DNA of 64,000 nucleotides from an uncultured Dehalococcoidia bacterium (GCA_964342485.1 CAYFFO010000005.1:23549-87548); one strand, 5' to 3'. Shown: positions 2,554 through 10,447, counted from the first letter of the stretch. Translations and numbers: made by a program. Notes: generated from the letters alone by a model not told the origin.

Positions 2554-3393
2554 ATGATTGATGATTGGTCATTAAAGTGGATTGATGCTCATGTGCATAT
2601 TTGGACACAGGATGTTAACAGATATCCTGCCTCAGGTTTCGACGTTTCTACTTTAGAACCTAAAGAATTTACCCCCGAATGGTTGTTTCGTTACTGTAGA
2701 CCTTTTCAAGTGGGGAAAATAGTATTGGTTCAGTCTGTATATAGTACTGACAATAGCTATATGCTAGATTCAGCGCGAAGATATCCAGGTATTTTTTCAG
2801 TAGTTGGTATGATAGATCATGATACTGCAAATATCGAAGAAAAAATGTATGAGGATAAAAAGGCAGGTGTTAGAGCTTATAGAGTCATTTTACCAATGGG
2901 GAATTCAGAGGGTTTTCTTGATGATATTGGATATAAACGGATGTTCAAAATAGCAGCTGGTACCGATCAGGCAATTTGTTTGCTATCTTATCCAGATGGA
3001 CTATCTGAGATTAATCGGATCTGTAAGGATTATGAAGATACAATAATTGTTATTGATCACATGGCAAGAATCGGAGAAGGCAATGAGATTTTGGATGAAC
3101 ATATAGATCTTTTGTGCAATTTGTCTAGATACCCAAACGTATATGTCAAGCTTTCAAGATTCCATGCTCTTGGTAACCGTCATGAAGAACACGAAGATTT
3201 ACTACCTCTTATCAACAGGGTAATTGAAACTTTTGGACAAGATAGAGTTATGTGGGGAAGCGATTCTCCATATCAAGTCGTTGAAGAAAGCTACTCTAAT
3301 TCAATTAACCTTGTACGCTATAATTTAGGATTGTCAGACAGTGAACTGTCTGCTGTTTTATCTGATACTGCAAATAAGGTATTTTTTAATTAA
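2554..3393 (+). CDS. amidohydrolase-2 family TIM-barrel metal hydrolase (lactonase/decarboxylase-like)
   Basis: WIDAHVHIW metal-binding HxH near the N-terminus, internal DHMAR, C-terminal MWGSDSP. Size 279 aa. Confidence 0.7.
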   Translation: MIDDWSLKWIDAHVHIWTQDVNRYPASGFDVSTLEPKEFTPEWLFRYCRPFQVGKIVLVQSVYSTDNSYMLDSARRYPGIFSVVGMIDHDTANIEEKMYEDKKAGVRAYRVILPMGNSEGFLDDIGYKRMFKIAAGTDQAICLLSYPDGLSEINRICKDYEDTIIVIDHMARIGEGNEILDEHIDLLCNLSRYPNVYVKLSRFHALGNRHEEHEDLLPLINRVIETFGQDRVMWGSDSPYQVVEESYSNSINLVRYNLGLSDSELSAVLSDTANKVFFN

Positions 3394-3427
3394 TTTCCCA
3401 TGTATAGACATGATTGCGATTTCGGAT

Positions 3428-3907
3428 TCACGATTTTATCCATTTTTTAGATAATATAGGATAGTCTTGACTCATAGACAACAGATTGCTGTTTTCGATT
3501 TTTGCAAATAGGCCTGTGGCTTTTGCGGCAACGATGCCGTTCTTCAATTCTATCCATCCTTCAGTTTCCCACAACCCATGTTTTGAGGATTTCTTCTTAC
3601 CATACGCAGTGATTTCTGTGTTAATAGGAATGGGTTTTAAGTAACGGACTTCTAGTTTAGCTGTCACGGTCCACCTGTTTTCGAGTACAGAAACTCTACT
3701 CATAACTTCATCAAGTACTGTATAAATTATTCCTCCGTGTATATATCCAGGGAAACCTTGATTTTCAGGTTGAGCTGAGTAAGTAGTTTTTACTTTGTTA
3801 TCATGTTTAGTAAATTTAAGTTGAAGGCCTGATGAATTTCTAGGTCCACAAGCAAAGCATAATCCGTAATCGGTATTGTCATTTAGAGGGACATTATTTT
3901 GATTCAA
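3428..3907 (-). CDS. PaaI/hotdog-fold thioesterase
   Basis: CFACGPRNSSGLQLKF followed by GYIHGGIIYTVLDEVM, typical of PaaI-type thioesterases. Size 159 aa. Confidence 0.65.
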   Translation of the reverse strand: MNQNNVPLNDNTDYGLCFACGPRNSSGLQLKFTKHDNKVKTTYSAQPENQGFPGYIHGGIIYTVLDEVMSRVSVLENRWTVTAKLEVRYLKPIPINTEITAYGKKKSSKHGLWETEGWIELKNGIVAAKATGLFAKIENSNLLSMSQDYPILSKKWIKS

Positions 3908-3960
3908 ATTTCTATGCCTGCCTAATTTATTAAAAAGGGAAGAATTTTAGTTATATTTAA

Positions 3961-6753
3961 TCAATATTTTCGCCAAGTGTTCCACCAGGATAATTGGTAG
4001 GGTGTTCTTTTCACATAAGTAAAACAGTGTATATTACCAGTCCATCTATGGTAATTATCCCAACTGTCAATCGATTGAGGAATCCCAGGTATAAGATCAA
4101 CAAAATTCTTTCTCATTATATTTTCGCCTGCATGATTTTTGGGACCGTAGTTTTTCCCGAAGAAAATATATTTTCCAGCAGTTTGTATATTTGTTAGTGC
4201 AGGTGCAAAAGGAAAGACTTGTTCTATAGAATTGGTTTTCGAATCAAAGGTTCCCATAAGTAGATCTGGGACTCGTATAACATCGATCTTTTCATCTATA
4301 GATTTGGAAATTGTAGAGACGACCATATTAATTTTCTTTTCGGCAGCGAAATTTAGTTGATGTAGCAATAGGTCTGTCTGGATTTCATATGCACTAATTA
4401 TTGCTGGGATTTCACTGCCTATTGTATCAAGCCAGAAACGCGTATTGTTTGCTAAAACATATTGACTTGTATGATCGGGTATTTCAAACCATTTTACTCT
4501 TGGTGGCTCACTTATGCTGTCTATTTGTCCATTTACAGAAGTAGCTGATTTTTTCGGTCCATCGTATCCCTTGTCGGCTATTTTAGTTGGGGTATTCCAC
4601 ACCTTATCAATGGACAACCATCCCGGGCCTGCAGCTGCAATTCTAGCTACCTGTCCAGCTCCTGTTCCAGCATATATCCTAATGTATTTTGCATATTCCC
4701 AAATTGGTTTTGTAAAGTCGGTATTTTCACTGTCGACTAATATGGTGTCACTACTATGTGAAGATGCGGCTAAATGAATGCCTGTACTGACTTTTCCATC
4801 TGCAAAAAATACCGCGTTCTCGTCGAGTTCATCAATTATGGTTTTAGCGCCTATAGGGTCGGGTGCAATGATAGTCCATTTTTTATTATCAGGTATTATA
4901 GAAATAATTTCATCGACATGCCCAACTCTTAGCCAGCCAGTTTCTATAGTGAAAGGTGATTGTAATTCCTGGTCTTTTAAAAAATGTAAAAGTTTTTGAC
5001 TTATAGTGTTTCCAACTACTATACGACCCAAAGGCCAAGATTTTGTTGGAGGGATAACCTCTATATTCCCACCAAAATCTCCTGCGTTTAGGCCATCATG
5101 AATTTGAAAATTTTCGAATCTGAATAGGCCTGTATTTGGCCCGATAAGGTTTGATTTAGGCCATGTTGGAGTGTCATCTTCAATTTTTTCGGTTGTTAAT
5201 TTCGAACGTGGAAGACGTAAAACGATATGAGTTTTTGGTTTCCCTGGCGCATGGGTATATCCTATTTCAATATGGTCCTGAGTCCACTGGTCGCCGCCAG
5301 TATAGTATGAATTCAAGGATACAGTGTCTTGAAGTGATAATCTGAAGTCTTCTAGACTTTGGCTTTTACCCCATATTTGCAATGCTTGTTGTGTGTTTGG
5401 TAATAATATCAATGGAGCTACTTTAAGCTGAACTCGGTCAAACCCCAGGCTAACATTACCTGGACCGGTGGCTGATAACTCTAATTCCAGAATACCATCG
5501 TATCCATCCTGGAAAGTTCCTCCATAAGCTTGAGATTGGGTATTGCGAAAGAAAAGACCTTCGATACCTAAAGTGGTATTAAATTTTCCAATAATAAGGT
5601 CTGTTATATTACTGTATTCTTCTTGTTCGCCTGGGCCTCCCCAAAAAGATTTTTCACCTGGTTCTATTTTTTGAAACACATGAACTCCTCTAATTTGATC
5701 GAGTTCAGGAGTTCTTAGAGTTACTGAAGTAAGGTCTTCCGGGTTAATACCATTAACACGAATAACAAGTTCAGTAATATCGAGGCTATCTTTTAAGCCG
5801 TTAATATAGAAATCTTCGCTTATAGGATAACCACCTTCGTCAAAGTCTATGCTATCTGGATTTCGTTTGTGGTCGGCTGAGTCATTGTCATAATTAACCA
5901 TGAAAATAGCACCACGTTGGTCTGTCCAATGGTCTTCTTTGTATTCATCCATAGTGTTATCAATAATCCCATCCCTATCACTGTCCACATCAAGATCGAG
6001 TTCAATGATCGAAAGATTTATATCGTCATGTGTTTTTCCCAATACAGATTGCATATTTAGCCTTAATACTACTTCTCTAGAATGTGCAGTTGTTTCTAAC
6101 CCTTCGATAAACAATTTATCCGGGATATGCTTGGCGTCAAAAATATAGGGTATATAAATTTGTTCCGTTTTCTCTGGATCCAGCCAAATCCTGATTTTTT
6201 CACCCCCAGATAGTGCAGATAGTTTTAGGGAAGATGAATCTGGTATTGGGTCTGCTTTTATATTGATTTCTTTCACACTAGATTGATTGCTGTTAAGGGA
6301 CAAAAATCCACCAACTGTTTCTTCTTCTTGTTCTTCTGTTCCGACGATATCGAGGTCAATGTCTATAACCATAATTTCTAAGGATTCTTTTGCCATTTCT
6401 CCTGTTGGCAACGAATATTTTAGAGTAAGAATTGAGCCGCCTTTTGAAATGGCAGTCAATGAAGTTGGACCTTCTTCTGTGGTGTCTATTCGGAGAACTT
6501 CAGGGTTGCTTGATTGCCAATCGCATTTTCCTCCGGATGGTCCCACGTGGGATTTCAGAATTTCAGTATCATCGATATTAAAAATTCTTGTTTCGAGATT
6601 AATCTGCGCAACTAGTCCGGACTGGATTGTATTGTCAGTTACTTTATCTATACAGGAGATATTGGTTTGTAAATTCTTAACCGAAGAGATACAGGAATTT
6701 CCAAAAGCGATTATTGAAAAAATCAGGAATAGTTTAATCAATATACGGATCAT
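3961..6753 (-). CDS. secreted protein-arginine deiminase (PAD, vertebrate/cyanobacterial type) homologue with N-terminal Ig-like region
   Basis: N-terminal signal MIRILIKLFLIFSIIAFGNSC. GDQWTQDHIEIGYTHAPGK resembles PAD W.QDEMEIGY. WLRVGHVDEIISIIP resembles GHVDEF (His and Asp). C-terminal GNIHCFTYVKRTP resembles G.HCGTNV.R.P, the catalytic Cys (codon at complement 4024-4026). There are also acidic Ca-binding-like DLDVDSDRDGIIDN and a Big_2-like segment with SSNPEVLRID. Confidence 0.75.
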   Translation of the reverse strand: MIRILIKLFLIFSIIAFGNSCISSVKNLQTNISCIDKVTDNTIQSGLVAQINLETRIFNIDDTEILKSHVGPSGGKCDWQSSNPEVLRIDTTEEGPTSLTAISKGGSILTLKYSLPTGEMAKESLEIMVIDIDLDIVGTEEQEEETVGGFLSLNSNQSSVKEINIKADPIPDSSSLKLSALSGGEKIRIWLDPEKTEQIYIPYIFDAKHIPDKLFIEGLETTAHSREVVLRLNMQSVLGKTHDDINLSIIELDLDVDSDRDGIIDNTMDEYKEDHWTDQRGAIFMVNYDNDSADHKRNPDSIDFDEGGYPISEDFYINGLKDSLDITELVIRVNGINPEDLTSVTLRTPELDQIRGVHVFQKIEPGEKSFWGGPGEQEEYSNITDLIIGKFNTTLGIEGLFFRNTQSQAYGGTFQDGYDGILELELSATGPGNVSLGFDRVQLKVAPLILLPNTQQALQIWGKSQSLEDFRLSLQDTVSLNSYYTGGDQWTQDHIEIGYTHAPGKPKTHIVLRLPRSKLTTEKIEDDTPTWPKSNLIGPNTGLFRFENFQIHDGLNAGDFGGNIEVIPPTKSWPLGRIVVGNTISQKLLHFLKDQELQSPFTIETGWLRVGHVDEIISIIPDNKKWTIIAPDPIGAKTIIDELDENAVFFADGKVSTGIHLAASSHSSDTILVDSENTDFTKPIWEYAKYIRIYAGTGAGQVARIAAAGPGWLSIDKVWNTPTKIADKGYDGPKKSATSVNGQIDSISEPPRVKWFEIPDHTSQYVLANNTRFWLDTIGSEIPAIISAYEIQTDLLLHQLNFAAEKKINMVVSTISKSIDEKIDVIRVPDLLMGTFDSKTNSIEQVFPFAPALTNIQTAGKYIFFGKNYGPKNHAGENIMRKNFVDLIPGIPQSIDSWDNYHRWTGNIHCFTYVKRTPYQLSWWNTWRKY

Positions 6754-6806
6754 TTTCTGTATGCTAACACATAGTAAATAATATACTTGTTAGTCTTTGG
6801 TTAGAT

Positions 6807-7817
6807 TTAATTTTCAACATACTTTATACGGGGATCGACGATAGCCAATAGGATATCTGAAATCAATGTTCCAATCACGGTCAGGATTCCTAGCATCAGG
6901 ATAATTGGTCCAGCAGTATAGGTGTCCTCTTGTTGGATTGCATCTAACAGTACTGGCCCTAAGGTAGGTAGACTAAGTACTACTGATACTATTACACTTC
7001 CTCCAACCAAAGATGGGAGTAGATACCCAACAGTACTAACCATCGGATTAATTGCAATTCGTACTGGATACTTTAATATAAGACGCCATTTCACGACTCC
7101 TTTTGCAGTCGCTGTCACTACATACGGTCTTGAAAGTTCATCTAATAGGTTATTACGCATAACCCTAATCAATCCTGCAGTGCCCGATGTTCCTAGTACA
7201 ATAGCTGGTATCCATAGATGATCTATAAGATCTAAAGCCTTAGCAATGCTCCATGGAGCATTTATAAAATCAGCAGAAAACAGGCCTCCAACATTCATGT
7301 CAAAATATGCGAATGCGATGTACATTAACACAAGGCCCAGCAGGAAGTCGGGTACCGCTAGACCAGAAAAGCCAATAAAAGTGAAAACGTAGTCTCCTAG
7401 TGACTGTTGTCTTACTGCCGAGTATATGCCTATAGGTATAGAGAAAATCCAAGTTACCAAGATAGTAAACCCGGTTAGTACTATCGTTGTGAAAAGTCGG
7501 TCTCCTATAATTTCTTTAACTGGTCTTTGGTTACCTAGGCCTCCGTAAGGAACCATGGTTTGCCCTAAATCTCCTTGTAATAGAGCCCAAACCCATTTCG
7601 AATAACGTACATATTTAGGTTGATCAAGACCTAATCGGAGACGAAGTTCTACCAACATCTCCTTTGCTACCATTTCAGTATGAGTTCGAGTTGCACGATC
7701 ATACATCCGGTCAATAGTATCGCCTGGAGGCAATTCAATTATGATGAATGCGGCTATAGATATTATCCACACTGTGAAAAAGGATAGTATTAGACGCCGA
7801 ACCACATATCTTGCCAA
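6807..7817 (-). CDS. ABC transporter permease, OppB/DppB family
   Basis: N-terminus MARYVVRRLILSFFTVWIISIAAFIIIELPPGD is typical of OppB/DppB. Multiple TM segments, 336 aa. Confidence 0.8.
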   Translation of the reverse strand: MARYVVRRLILSFFTVWIISIAAFIIIELPPGDTIDRMYDRATRTHTEMVAKEMLVELRLRLGLDQPKYVRYSKWVWALLQGDLGQTMVPYGGLGNQRPVKEIIGDRLFTTIVLTGFTILVTWIFSIPIGIYSAVRQQSLGDYVFTFIGFSGLAVPDFLLGLVLMYIAFAYFDMNVGGLFSADFINAPWSIAKALDLIDHLWIPAIVLGTSGTAGLIRVMRNNLLDELSRPYVVTATAKGVVKWRLILKYPVRIAINPMVSTVGYLLPSLVGGSVIVSVVLSLPTLGPVLLDAIQQEDTYTAGPIILMLGILTVIGTLISDILLAIVDPRIKYVEN

Positions 7818-7963
7818 TGTGAACCCTCAATTACGGATTAGACCAAGTTTATATATAAGATTGGCTTAACTGTCAACATTATGGTGCATTCAAATAATAT
7901 TCCGCTGATATAGTGTTTGTAATAGGATGGGCAGTTTTGAATTTTGGGTAACAATATTATTCA

Positions 7964-7984
7964 TTTTGGATAATTTATCCAAAA
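7964..7984. repeat. perfect 21-bp palindrome TTTTGGATAA-T-TTATCCAAAA
   Basis: Read directly. It lies between the amidohydrolase stop (8017) and the permease start (7817). Confidence 0.6.
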
Positions 7985-8016
7985 TCCGGTTTTAGTGCCA
8001 TGGTTACGAAAATTAT

Positions 8017-9252
8017 TTATACTTTTGGTATAGCCGATTGCTTGACTATTTCCCCTGCTTTTATCACGGTATCAACATTATGTAATGATTGGATTGATTT
8101 AGAAGCGTTCCCTTTTACTATCACAATATCTGCCCTTTTACCTAATTGAAGCGTGCCAGTTGTTTTTGATATTCCAAGACAATTTGCCGATGTACTGGTG
8201 CCACTTTGGATAGCTTGTATTGGTGATAATCCTAGTTTTTCAACCATGAAAGTAGGCACCCAAGCGTAATCGCCAAATCCGACATAATTCATACCTGAAT
8301 CGAGTCCGGTAACTAGCTTGACACCACGATCCCACATATCACGTAAATTTTCATAGAATGTGTCTCGATCACCGAGTAAGTTTGTATCATTAGAGAGCTC
8401 AGATAAGTTAGGGTCTCTTTGTTGCCGGAGGGAAATTGTTGCTATGGTGGGATCAACGTATAAACCTTTTTCGGCTATCATATCTGCTATACGCGGTTCA
8501 TATTGATAAACTTTATCTGGGTCATGTGAGAGCCACGTGGCATGTATCAAGTTGTTAATACCAGATTCTGCTGAGGATTTAATACCGGAGGTTGCATGGC
8601 AATGGGCTGCGACAGGTATCCCTAAGCGTCCAGCCTCTTCTACAACGGTCTGTAAGATTTTAAGTGAATATTGTGGCATTAACGGATTGGTACGAGGTGT
8701 GAATCTTCCACCGGTGGCCATGATTTTTATCCAATTCATTCCAAGTTTTACTTGAGATCTCAGTGCTGTAATTACTTGGTCAAGTGTATCGGCTTCAGTA
8801 CCAAACATATGGCAATGTCCACCAGTCGTTGTAATAGGTGTTCCTGCTATCAATAAATGAGGACCAGGGATGATGTTATTCGATATAGCGTTTCTAATTG
8901 ATAAAGCTATATTATTTTGACTTCCAAGATCCCTCATAGTTGTTACTCCAGATAATAGAGCGGTACGAACTGCCTGGGTTGCCCTAATTAAAAGAGTTTC
9001 ATCAGAATCATTAGCCAGGTCTTCGAACGCAGTTGACTTTGAACTACAATGGATGTGTGAATGCATTTCTATAAATCCAGGCAAAATAGTTCCCCCGGGT
9101 ACGTCAATTACCTTTATGTCTGTACTGGATTCTATAGAATACGAATCGGATATAGCGGTAATCTTTCCATTTTCTATAAGTACTGAATAGTTTTGCTTAG
9201 CAGGTGATCCTGTGCCGTCCACCAGGGTTTCTGATTTCAGGAGAAGTTTCAA
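8017..9252 (-). CDS. amidohydrolase-family metallo-hydrolase (imidazolonepropionase / Xaa-Pro dipeptidase-like)
   Basis: PGFIEMHSHIH (HxH), later AAHCH and a C-terminal GKRADIVIV-type motif. Size 411 aa. Confidence 0.75.
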   Translation of the reverse strand: MKLLLKSETLVDGTGSPAKQNYSVLIENGKITAISDSYSIESSTDIKVIDVPGGTILPGFIEMHSHIHCSSKSTAFEDLANDSDETLLIRATQAVRTALLSGVTTMRDLGSQNNIALSIRNAISNNIIPGPHLLIAGTPITTTGGHCHMFGTEADTLDQVITALRSQVKLGMNWIKIMATGGRFTPRTNPLMPQYSLKILQTVVEEAGRLGIPVAAHCHATSGIKSSAESGINNLIHATWLSHDPDKVYQYEPRIADMIAEKGLYVDPTIATISLRQQRDPNLSELSNDTNLLGDRDTFYENLRDMWDRGVKLVTGLDSGMNYVGFGDYAWVPTFMVEKLGLSPIQAIQSGTSTSANCLGISKTTGTLQLGKRADIVIVKGNASKSIQSLHNVDTVIKAGEIVKQSAIPKV

Positions 9253-9449
9253 AATTTTTATGCCTCCAAGTTGGATTCCAAAGATTTGATATATACGTTC
9301 ATATTTAGTGAACTATACCATTTCTAGTTAGAGACAGGGTTAATGTTTTATAGTTACTTAATCTTAGTTAGTGTATTCTAGATACGTTTTTAGTTTGACT
9401 AGATATCAAAGTGATTCTAAAATTTATAAAATGCCTTTGAAAGGTAATT

Positions 9450-9947
9450 ATGAATAATTTAAGTTTGTCACCGTCCATTGTTATAAACCAACTTCATAAA
9501 AATGAAGTTACACACGTTGTTTGGTTACCTGACAGTGAAACGAATTTCATGTATGAAAATATGGTAGGAGACGATTCTTTAGATATTGTCCCGATTTGCA
9601 GAGAAGGGGAAGGATTGCCTATTGCATTAGGACTTTGGATTGGTGGAAAGAAGCCTGTAGTAATGATACAGAATACAGGTCTGTTTGAGTCTGGAGATTC
9701 AATTAGAGGATTAGGTATAGATTTGGACATCCCAATGGTTATGATGATTGGATACAGAGGATGGACGAGGCACGGAGAAATTACTGATTCTGCAGCTATT
9801 TATACTGAGCCGATTCTTTGTGCTTGGGGGATAAAACATTATCTGATTGAAAGTGACAAAGATGCCGATAAGATAACAGATGCTTTTAGCGAAGCGTATG
9901 ATAAGAATACTTTAGTTGCGTGTTTAATGGGATCAGAATATTCTTGA
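9450..9947 (+). CDS. TPP-enzyme N-terminal domain protein, sulfopyruvate/phosphonopyruvate decarboxylase alpha-subunit-like
   Basis: 165 aa covering only the Pyr-domain part: VTHVVWLPDSETN, CREGEGLPIALGLWIGGKKPVVMIQNTG. No beta subunit ORF is adjacent. Confidence 0.55.
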   Translation: MNNLSLSPSIVINQLHKNEVTHVVWLPDSETNFMYENMVGDDSLDIVPICREGEGLPIALGLWIGGKKPVVMIQNTGLFESGDSIRGLGIDLDIPMVMMIGYRGWTRHGEITDSAAIYTEPILCAWGIKHYLIESDKDADKITDAFSEAYDKNTLVACLMGSEYS

Positions 9948-9988
9948 TTGAATTCTATCGTTAACATGTCTTGTTGTTATAAATTTTC

Positions 9989-10447
9989 TTATATCAAATC
10001 TCTATTAGATTCTAATTCGGAAACTTTATTAAGCCTCCTAATGTGACGTTCTTTTCCAGAGAATTTGGCTTTTATGAAATTCGAAGCTAATTCTAATGCA
10101 AGATTTTTTTCAACTACAAGGGCGCCTATACATAATACATTCATATCATCATGCTCTACTCCTTGATGCGCTGAGTAAATGTCATGACATATGCTGGCGC
10201 GTATCCCAACTATTTTATTAGCTGCAATACTCGCACCAACTCCACTACCACATACTAATATTCCTCTATCGGATTCTTGAGAAGATACTTGTTTTCCTAC
10301 AGCTTTTGCAAAATCAGGGTAATCGTCATCGGGATCTAAAGTATGGGCACCTACATCTACTATGCTATGACCCATAGATTCTATTTTTTCATAAAGGTAG
10401 TTTTTCAAGTCATATCCAGCGTGATCAGCTCCTATTGCAATACGCAT
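9989..10447 (-). CDS. rpiB: ribose-5-phosphate isomerase B (RpiB/LacAB family)
   Basis: MRIAIGADHAGYDLKNYL and GILVCGSGVGASIAANK. Size 152 aa. Confidence 0.85.
   Translation of the reverse strand: MRIAIGADHAGYDLKNYLYEKIESMGHSIVDVGAHTLDPDDDYPDFAKAVGKQVSSQESDRGILVCGSGVGASIAANKIVGIRASICHDIYSAHQGVEHDDMNVLCIGALVVEKNLALELASNFIKAKFSGKERHIRRLNKVSELESNRDLI

Follow-up and report, generated by a model that had tools for sequence, protein, structure and literature searches.

The window analyzed here, a stretch of 64,000 nucleotides from an uncultured Dehalococcoidia bacterium (GCA_964342485.1 CAYFFO010000005.1:23549-87548), carries at positions 3961-6753 of the minus strand a gene whose product is identified by its sequence as a protein-arginine deiminase (PAD) of Pfam family PF03068. 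The gene begins with ATG and encodes 930 aa followed by a stop codon, as read from the listing of open reading frames and their translation. It is intact and under purifying selection. Measured against the copy at locus L019 of a close relative, whose protein is ~90% identical, the ratio of nonsynonymous to synonymous substitution rates (dN/dS) is 0.146 over the whole gene; by part, it is 0.085-0.128 in the catalytic parts, 0.131 in a module inserted between them, and 0.25-0.31 in the N-terminal domains. The GC content of the region is unremarkable. The parts of the gene, all on the minus strand, are given below from the N-terminus to the C-terminus of the protein.

6691..6753, minus strand: export signal MIRILIKLFLIFSIIAFGNSC, residues 1-21, read from the sequence
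6379..6531, minus strand: predicted β-sandwich, residues ~75-125 (strands at 77-129 in the AlphaFold model with a predicted local distance difference test score, pLDDT, of 50-70; dN/dS 0.31)
5998..6378, minus strand: degenerate repeat resembling the PAD middle domain, residues 126-252 (iterated search; all-β in the model, pLDDT 60-88)
5449..5997, minus strand: PAD middle domain, residues 253-435, with the ligands of calcium sites 3, 4, 5 and 6 (weak PAD_M match and residue mapping)
4813..5448, minus strand: PAD catalytic domain part 1, residues 436-647 (Pfam stretch 439-646, profile positions 5-229)
5275-5277, 4918-4920 and 4912-4914, minus strand: codons of Asp493, His612 and Asp614, respectively
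4378..4812, minus strand: inserted module, a predicted β-barrel, residues 648-792 (hidden Markov model, HMM, of the insert; structural model; dN/dS 0.131)
3961..4377, minus strand: PAD catalytic domain part 2, residues 793-930, which includes a C-terminal WW motif (Pfam stretch, profile positions 258-395)
4024-4026, minus strand: codon of the putative nucleophile Cys910, within part 2

Family membership, active-site residues and export

The Pfam PAD profile matches the C-terminal two thirds of the protein in two stretches that extend from profile position 5 to 395 (E = 2.1e-48; 165.7 bits against a cut-off of 25), and the PAD_M profile matches residues 250-298 slightly below its own cut-off (E = 3e-4; 20.9 bits against 24.8). 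These were the only two families found in the Pfam scan at E ≤ 1. Neither PF04371, which covers Porphyromonas PPAD and agmatine deiminase, nor PF02274, which covers arginine deiminase, was matched, so the models of both families are excluded. A scan of NCBIfam gave nothing but a spurious 12-bit match. A phmmer search of the PDB returned only human PAD1, PAD2, PAD3, PAD4 and PAD6, with E values for the PAD1, PAD2 and PAD4 chains ranging from 5e-29, the best of the search, to ~1e-23. An AlphaFold model of the full protein was built from 18 homologues as a calcium-free prediction (mean pLDDT 70.4) and compared with the PDB by Foldseek. The best 50 matches were all human or mouse PADs (PAD1, PAD2, PAD3, PAD4 and PAD6), with E values of 6.6e-34 to 1.9e-29 (~1e-32 to 1e-34 for human PAD1-PAD4) and TM-scores on the target of 0.58-0.67. 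The alignments have ~830 columns and the targets 588-684 residues, so alignments of this length can span almost all of a target chain. The original prediction, made from the DNA sequence alone, had described a PAD-type enzyme distinct from Porphyromonas PPAD and agmatine deiminase and had called for a profile search that could separate the two. That search assigns the C-terminal part to PAD and not to another guanidino-modifying family; the strength of the PF03068 match, the PAD-only Foldseek matches and the lack of any match to a rival family all agree with the description.

Catalytic and metal-binding residues were mapped through an alignment of the window protein with human PAD2 and 111 relatives. 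The three motifs quoted in the original prediction are present, namely GDQWTQDHIEIGY with Asp493, GHVDEI with His612 and Asp614, and GNIHCFTYV with Cys910, whose codon does lie at 4024-4026. The tetrad D493, H612, D614 and C910 aligns with D350, H471, D473 and C645 of human PAD4; relative to PAD2, D351 corresponds to D493, C647 to C910, and the HVDE motif to H612-V-D614-E. D493, C910 and the HVDE motif are found in 112 of the 112 aligned relatives.

The ligands of calcium site 1 are retained (Q492, E496 and E565), as are those of sites 3, 4 and 5 (N287, D289, D291, D300, D322 and D325, which align in that order with PAD2 N154, D156, E158, D166, D177 and D180) and of site 6 (D257, D259, D261 and D265). 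An acidic stretch that had been noted as resembling a calcium-binding site, DLDVDSDRDG, does align with the Ca6 ligands at the start of the human PAD2 middle domain. Because the ligands of sites 1, 3, 4, 5 and 6 are kept, activity should need calcium. Site 2, the "calcium switch" of the human enzymes, is formed in PAD2 by E352, D370 and S371, and these positions are H494, R513 and L514 in the window protein. The consensus of its clade is also H, R and L, whereas the residues in animal PADs and in the cyanobacterial PADs of the same group are E, followed by D or N and finally S. With site 2 replaced by His, Arg and Leu, regulation must differ from that of the human PADs. The conserved ligands thus point to an enzyme that is very probably calcium-dependent but regulated otherwise than its human counterparts.

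The N-terminal export signal that had been predicted is visible in the sequence, and a hydrophobic N-terminal segment was found by a crude test in 72 of 100 complete clade members. Genes for Lgt and LspA are present in the genome that contains the window, and orthologues of 715-747 aa from the sister genus carry canonical lipoboxes such as LASC and IACG; type I cleavage after A-F-G is the alternative to lipoprotein processing of the signal. Judged from these sequence features, export of the protein is well supported, and its lipidation is probable, though not certain.

Residues 22-256 gave no Pfam match at E ≤ 10. The N-terminal segment had been labeled Big_2-type, a resemblance by motif only; AlphaFold predicts β structure there, but the Big_2 assignment itself receives no support from Pfam at this threshold. 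An iterated search among the collected proteins ties residues 126-252 to PAD_M-type segments of relatives (DxDxDR.G ... VNxDDD ... DL..L). These residues occupy the position that PAD_N holds in animal PADs, and PAD_N itself (PF08526) has no Pfam match in the window protein. Both the β domain at ~75-125 and the repeat at 126-252 are missing from the 715-747-aa orthologues.

The inserted module and its clade

The Pfam PAD match is interrupted between profile positions 229 and 258. This region spans 144 residues in the window protein, compared with 13-40 in insert-less PADs from Aminicenantes, Planctomycetota, Streptomyces, cyanobacteria, fungi and animals. An insertion at this point had been predicted and is real, but its net size is ~115-125 aa rather than the ~100 residues proposed. 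It is present in all 18 aligned homologues, at identities as low as 26%, with R692, G700, V702 and W719 invariant and a core motif of the form YIRIYxGxGAGQVxxI ... VDKVWxT ... PDxTSxYVL. An HMM of the insert matches 192 of the 211 collected relatives, the remainder being fragments or insert-less types, and the insert occurs in more than 100 protein clusters. The spacing between the catalytic His and Cys is correspondingly 280-340 residues in most insert-type relatives; classical PADs have 165-225.

The insert is the most confident part of the full AlphaFold model (pLDDT > 90, mainly β strands) and is predicted to form a β-barrel of ~120 aa. Searched alone against Pfam at E ≤ 10 it gave no match, which places it in no curated family. 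When it was modeled separately (pLDDT 67) and compared with the PDB, the best E value was 0.09 and no fold could be assigned; the weak matches, for example to F1-ATPase, ubiquitin E1 and phage tail proteins (E ≥ 0.09), were set aside as unrelated proteins that contain β-barrels. The insert HMM matched only the PAD gene in a six-frame translation of the whole genome, so the module is unused elsewhere in the organism. Its dN/dS, as low as that of the catalytic parts, and its conservation argue for a constrained and integral module of the enzyme. A small basal group of PADs (P0035, P0172, P0207 and P0210) carries the barrel module in tandem duplicate or split form, without the long loop of the window protein, and may represent the ancestral form of the insert.

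When 1.84 billion representative proteins were searched exhaustively, 1,725 PAD clusters passed E ≤ 1e-3, of which 170 also passed E ≤ 1e-30. Among the 150 best clusters, nearly all align over the insert, and many clade members are large multidomain proteins of up to ~2,900 aa. Trees were calculated with IQ-TREE after the insert columns had been removed. In a tree without cyanobacterial sequences, rooted on Streptomyces, all 60 of the 60 insert-bearing rows form one clade (support 99/93). A second tree also included supplementary sequences of Cummings et al. 2021 and was rooted on the actinobacterial and fungal PADs. This tree recovers the clade of metazoa and cyanobacteria described by those authors, here as metazoa with Cyanothece, Limnoraphis and Microscilla (support 100/99). 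The window protein falls in the neighboring group, which comprises the insert clade, Lysobacter and two insert-less Planctomycetota PADs (86/85 at the join); support is 99/98 for the core insert clade and 87/91 for the whole insert group. The metazoan/cyanobacterial side and the insert-clade side are joined at 86/87, or at 97/92 when the long-branched P0197 is included, and together they exclude a group made up of Aminicenantes PADs and Arthrospira, as well as the actinobacterial and fungal types.

The linker between the middle and catalytic domains agrees with this placement, since the window protein has KVAPLILLPNTQQ (APLILLPNTQ), animal and cyanobacterial PADs have APWIMTPNT, and Streptomyces and Fusarium PADs have APVLTHHH. 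The description "vertebrate-type" is true only in a broad sense, with the qualifications that the clade lies on the sister side of the cyanobacterial and animal clade and not within it (Clade A of Cummings et al. 2021, inside which the second tree does not place the window protein), and that calcium site 2 has been lost. Automated annotation labels the relatives "protein-arginine deiminase family protein" or K01481. A search of a plasmid collection found four PADs only, all actinobacterial (three from Streptomyces and one from Embleya), and two of these plasmid-borne Streptomyces proteins served as insert-less comparators.

PADs have been reported from 0.76% of bacterial species (PMC8826395, Table 1), and the expectation that they would be rare and patchy in bacteria holds here as well: among 301 genomes sampled from the class, PF03068 was found in the window's own genome only. 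This assembly is 1.94 Mb and 87.6% complete, its nearest named relatives are uncultured marine Dehalococcoidia, and Tara Oceans data likewise contain the protein. Within the same family, 12 of 15 genomes have PF03068; none of the 46 genomes from the order's other families does, and the nearest proteins beyond the family are 41-44% identical. This distribution suggests that the gene was probably gained once, horizontally and long ago, by the ancestor of the Dehalococcoidia family and was then inherited vertically. One of the closest proteins from outside the family (P0071, 42% identity) was deposited under a Candidatus Woesearchaeota archaeon assembly; given that label, the clade may span the boundary between bacteria and archaea, or the bin may be contaminated.

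Since bacterial PADs are already known, the system is not new in kind, and it can be compared with several known groups. Human PAD1-PAD4 (structures 5HP5, 4N2C, 1WDA and others) share with the window protein the catalytic family, the fold, the Asp/His/Asp/Cys tetrad, calcium site 1, a middle domain with the ligands of sites 3-6 and the APxxxxPNT linker, at ~18% identity in structural alignments. They differ in being cytosolic or nuclear rather than exported, in possessing site 2 where the window protein has H494/R513/L514, in having no barrel after the HVDE strand where the window protein has one of ~120 aa, and in carrying PAD_N, to which the window protein has no Pfam match, showing instead a degenerate PAD_M-like repeat and an extra β domain. 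The three-domain PADIs of cyanobacteria such as Cyanothece (Cummings et al. 2021, PMC8826395) are bacterial PF03068 enzymes that share the PNT-type linker; in the tree, they and the window protein both fall on the animal side, separate from the actinobacterial/fungal type. Unlike the window protein, they keep calcium site 2 and lack the insert, with 19-29 residues in that region. The citrulassin PAD of Streptomyces (Harris et al. 2020, bioRxiv 10.1101/2020.07.16.207027) also belongs to PF03068 and has the tetrad. Actinobacterial PADs resemble the window protein in the absence of calcium site 2 and in an Arg at the position of PAD2 Asp370, but they have an HHH-type linker in place of the PNT type and form the outgroup of the tree, and the two Streptomyces PADs compared lack the insert.

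The insert is absent from the descriptions in Cummings et al. 2021 (PMC8826395) and Harris et al. 2020 (bioRxiv 10.1101/2020.07.16.207027), and the string GAGQV of its core motif occurs once in the sequence files of the former, in an unrelated stretch of an actinobacterial-type PAD. Literature searches on SAR202 with PAD and on PF03068 returned no account of insert-bearing or Chloroflexi PADs. We found no description of an exported, insert-bearing clade without calcium site 2 in the literature searched, nor such a clade in the published PAD phylogeny that was checked. The window gene is a clean example of this large clade of exported PADs, known mostly from metagenomes, in which a conserved domain is inserted into the catalytic domain and the calcium switch is missing. 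The position of the clade beside the cyanobacterial and animal PADs gives it a bearing on the debated origin of citrullination in animals.

Gene neighborhood and permease expansion

The PAD gene is flanked by two co-oriented genes, each separated from it by the 53-nt gap that had been predicted.

6807..7817, minus strand: OppB/DppB-type ATP-binding cassette (ABC) permease, upstream (Pfam BPD_transp_1_N and BPD_transp_1)
3428..3907, minus strand: hotdog 4HBT thioesterase, downstream (Pfam 4HBT, 23.2 bits)

A promoter and terminator scan of positions 3300-8100 gave counts not above those of shuffled sequence, with no minus-strand terminator between the three genes, a result that bears neither way on co-transcription.

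OppB-like permease genes lie close to PAD at every locus compared within the family. The window has one upstream, L019 has two upstream, L001 has one downstream, L002 has three upstream and one downstream, and L005 has two upstream together with a PNPOx-like gene and two more downstream; the L006 locus shows an OppB-like arrangement as well. Orthologues (81-84%) of the window's PAD-adjacent permease lie within ~7 kb of PAD in five relatives and adjoin it in four. The sister genus has larger genomes in which a PNPOx_N gene is situated between the permeases and PAD (L005:7424-7933; L006:7513-8004), and in L006 this gene overlaps the start of PAD; neither the window nor L019 has it.

The upstream permease had been regarded as an orphan, which is not the case, as this genome has 11 such paralogues with it included (window 6807-7817 and G000 contigs C4, C5, C8, C9, C12, C13, C20, C21 and C42). 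Six of seven relatives from the same family have 14-31 copies (20-31 in most relatives) and the seventh has none; two genomes from the order's other families likewise have none. The copies share 55-84% identity and occur, alone or in tandem, at scattered sites between genes unrelated to them. Also present in the genome are four canonical transporter loci, each with an SBP_bac_5 binding-protein gene, OppB and OppC. A further locus on contig 23 (G000 C23:10124-13368) consists of OppC-OppD-OppF without OppB or a binding protein and holds the only OppD/OppF pair of the genome. A single OppD/OppF pair beside an OppC that lacks an OppB suggests a shared OppC-OppD-OppF core that works with interchangeable OppB subunits.

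Across genera of the family, the synteny block consists of rpiB, a stand-alone N-terminal half of a thiamine pyrophosphate (TPP) enzyme, an amidohydrolase, the permease(s), PAD and 4HBT (window 8017-10447 compared with L005:124-3129 and L019:1-1716). The 4HBT gene is placed likewise in L005 and L019 and, weakly, in L001; we treat the thioesterase as a syntenic neighbor only and claim no functional link. Because the permease linkage is absent at the loci compared outside the family (L014, L015 and L016), we do not take it as a general functional coupling: the association of permease and PAD is conserved synteny, and a functional meaning is possible.

At two insert-type loci from unrelated metagenomic contigs, the gene directly downstream of PAD encodes a partner of ~300 aa that carries a signal sequence and matches no Pfam family (L015:8622-9521 and L016:4255-5214). 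The two partners are 34% identical (E = 5e-37), and the L016 copy overlaps its PAD gene. Searched by tblastn, this partner had no match below E = 3.6 in the window's genome, none below E = 0.2 at the family loci, and none in L014. Within 6 kb of its PAD, L016 has in addition a further, short fragment of PAD and a gene for arginine deiminase of PF02274 (7578-7880 and 9801-10292).

Proposed function and alternatives

The explanation that best accounts for these data, and that we consider fairly probable, is that the gene encodes an exported PF03068 protein-arginine deiminase that depends on calcium and acts outside the cytoplasm on peptidyl-arginine. The protein would be held, probably by a lipid anchor, on the outer face of the cytoplasmic membrane. 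Seawater contains ~10 mM calcium, and at this location it would supply the need of the enzyme. By homology, Cys910 is predicted to attack the guanidinium carbon of peptidyl-arginine while Asp493 and Asp614 hold the substrate and His612 serves as general base, with peptidyl-citrulline and ammonia as products. We infer that the inserted barrel docks substrates or partners in the envelope. Deimination of arginine in extracellular proteins and peptides might then release ammonia or, just as tentatively, condition peptides for the expanded Opp-type permeases of the lineage. The proposed site of action is analogous to that of Porphyromonas gingivalis PPAD (PF04371), which is exported and citrullinates peptidyl-arginine outside the cell; PPAD belongs to a different family of the same superfamily and has no profile match with the window protein. 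In a heterotroph of the deep sea, a deiminase that is exported and depends on calcium would point to citrullination outside the cell as a route to process dissolved proteins, and the gene bears on the question of what the native substrates of bacterial PADs are.

Several observations weigh against this explanation. The active-site loops 485-497, 510-561 and 905-908 have pLDDT < 50, so that the geometry of the tetrad cannot be read from the model, although low confidence in these loops would be expected for a calcium-free prediction of a site that is ordered by calcium. PAD4 Arg374, which contacts the substrate backbone, is replaced by Lys in the window protein, and in 66 of the 112 clade members Tyr occupies the position of PAD2 Arg373; with these contacts varied, recognition of peptide substrates could differ. 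The export signal ends in FGNSC, in which Asn at -2 falls outside the canonical lipobox [LVI][ASTVI][GAS]C. With respect to the permeases, the family is multi-copy (11-31 per genome), so the linkage to PAD may be synteny only, and the distant insert-type PAD loci L014, L015 and L016 have no permease nearby.

If the enzyme instead modifies proteins of its own cell, the substrates would be envelope or secreted proteins, such as S-layer proteins, binding proteins or the outward loops of Opp transporters, and the role would be regulation or maturation rather than scavenging. Among bacterial PF03068 PADs a role is known for one alone, and this enzyme provides a precedent, as it acts on an endogenous product in the maturation of the lasso peptide citrulassin (bioRxiv 10.1101/2020.07.16.207027). 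Retention of the PAD position beside OppB-like permeases across genera would also fit, as would the probable tethering of the protein to the membrane. No candidate substrate gene was seen, however, either as a precursor peptide or as a conserved arginine-rich neighbor; the permease linkage does not extend beyond the family, and the partner gene of the L015/L016 type was not detected here. We regard this alternative as credible but rather unlikely.

We give a still lower probability to a shift of the enzyme toward small molecules with a guanidino group that occur in dissolved organic matter (for instance agmatine, free arginine or short arginine derivatives with a blocked N-terminus), in which case the protein would be an exported hydrolase that harvests nitrogen. 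The variable backbone-contact positions described above are consistent with such substrates, the insert could remodel the entrance of the active site, and the neighboring amidohydrolases and thioesterase are typical of small-molecule breakdown. Against this, the profile and fold both match PADs and not the arginine- or agmatine-deiminase families, and the window protein retains Arg516 and Trp490. A role as an effector in antagonism or against a host, in which the proteins citrullinated would be those of competitors, grazers or viruses, in parallel to Porphyromonas PPAD, would agree with the export of the protein and with the large multidomain secreted members of the clade, but it is highly improbable given that no secretion-system, immunity or toxin-type genes lie nearby, that the metabolic neighborhood is stable across genera, and that a lipid anchor would hold the protein on the producing cell.

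The exported deiminase acting on peptidyl-arginine can be set within a wider proposal, which we offer as speculation and think unlikely. It holds that insert-bearing exported PADs form an uncharted, mostly metagenomic clade of bacteria and archaea that is the closest sister of the cyanobacterial and animal PADs, and that its Dehalococcoidia members would be surface enzymes activated by seawater calcium, which take nitrogen from protein-bound arginine or condition peptides for a combinatorial Opp transporter with many OppB subunits and one OppC-OppD-OppF core.

The PAD frame is broken in two relatives of the window gene. At L002 it is divided between open reading frames 8384-9673 and 9694-10293 (span L002:8001-10290), and in G304 between frames of 486 and 245 aa (span G304:C1:84771-86164); in each case the break could reflect a pseudogene or an assembly frameshift.

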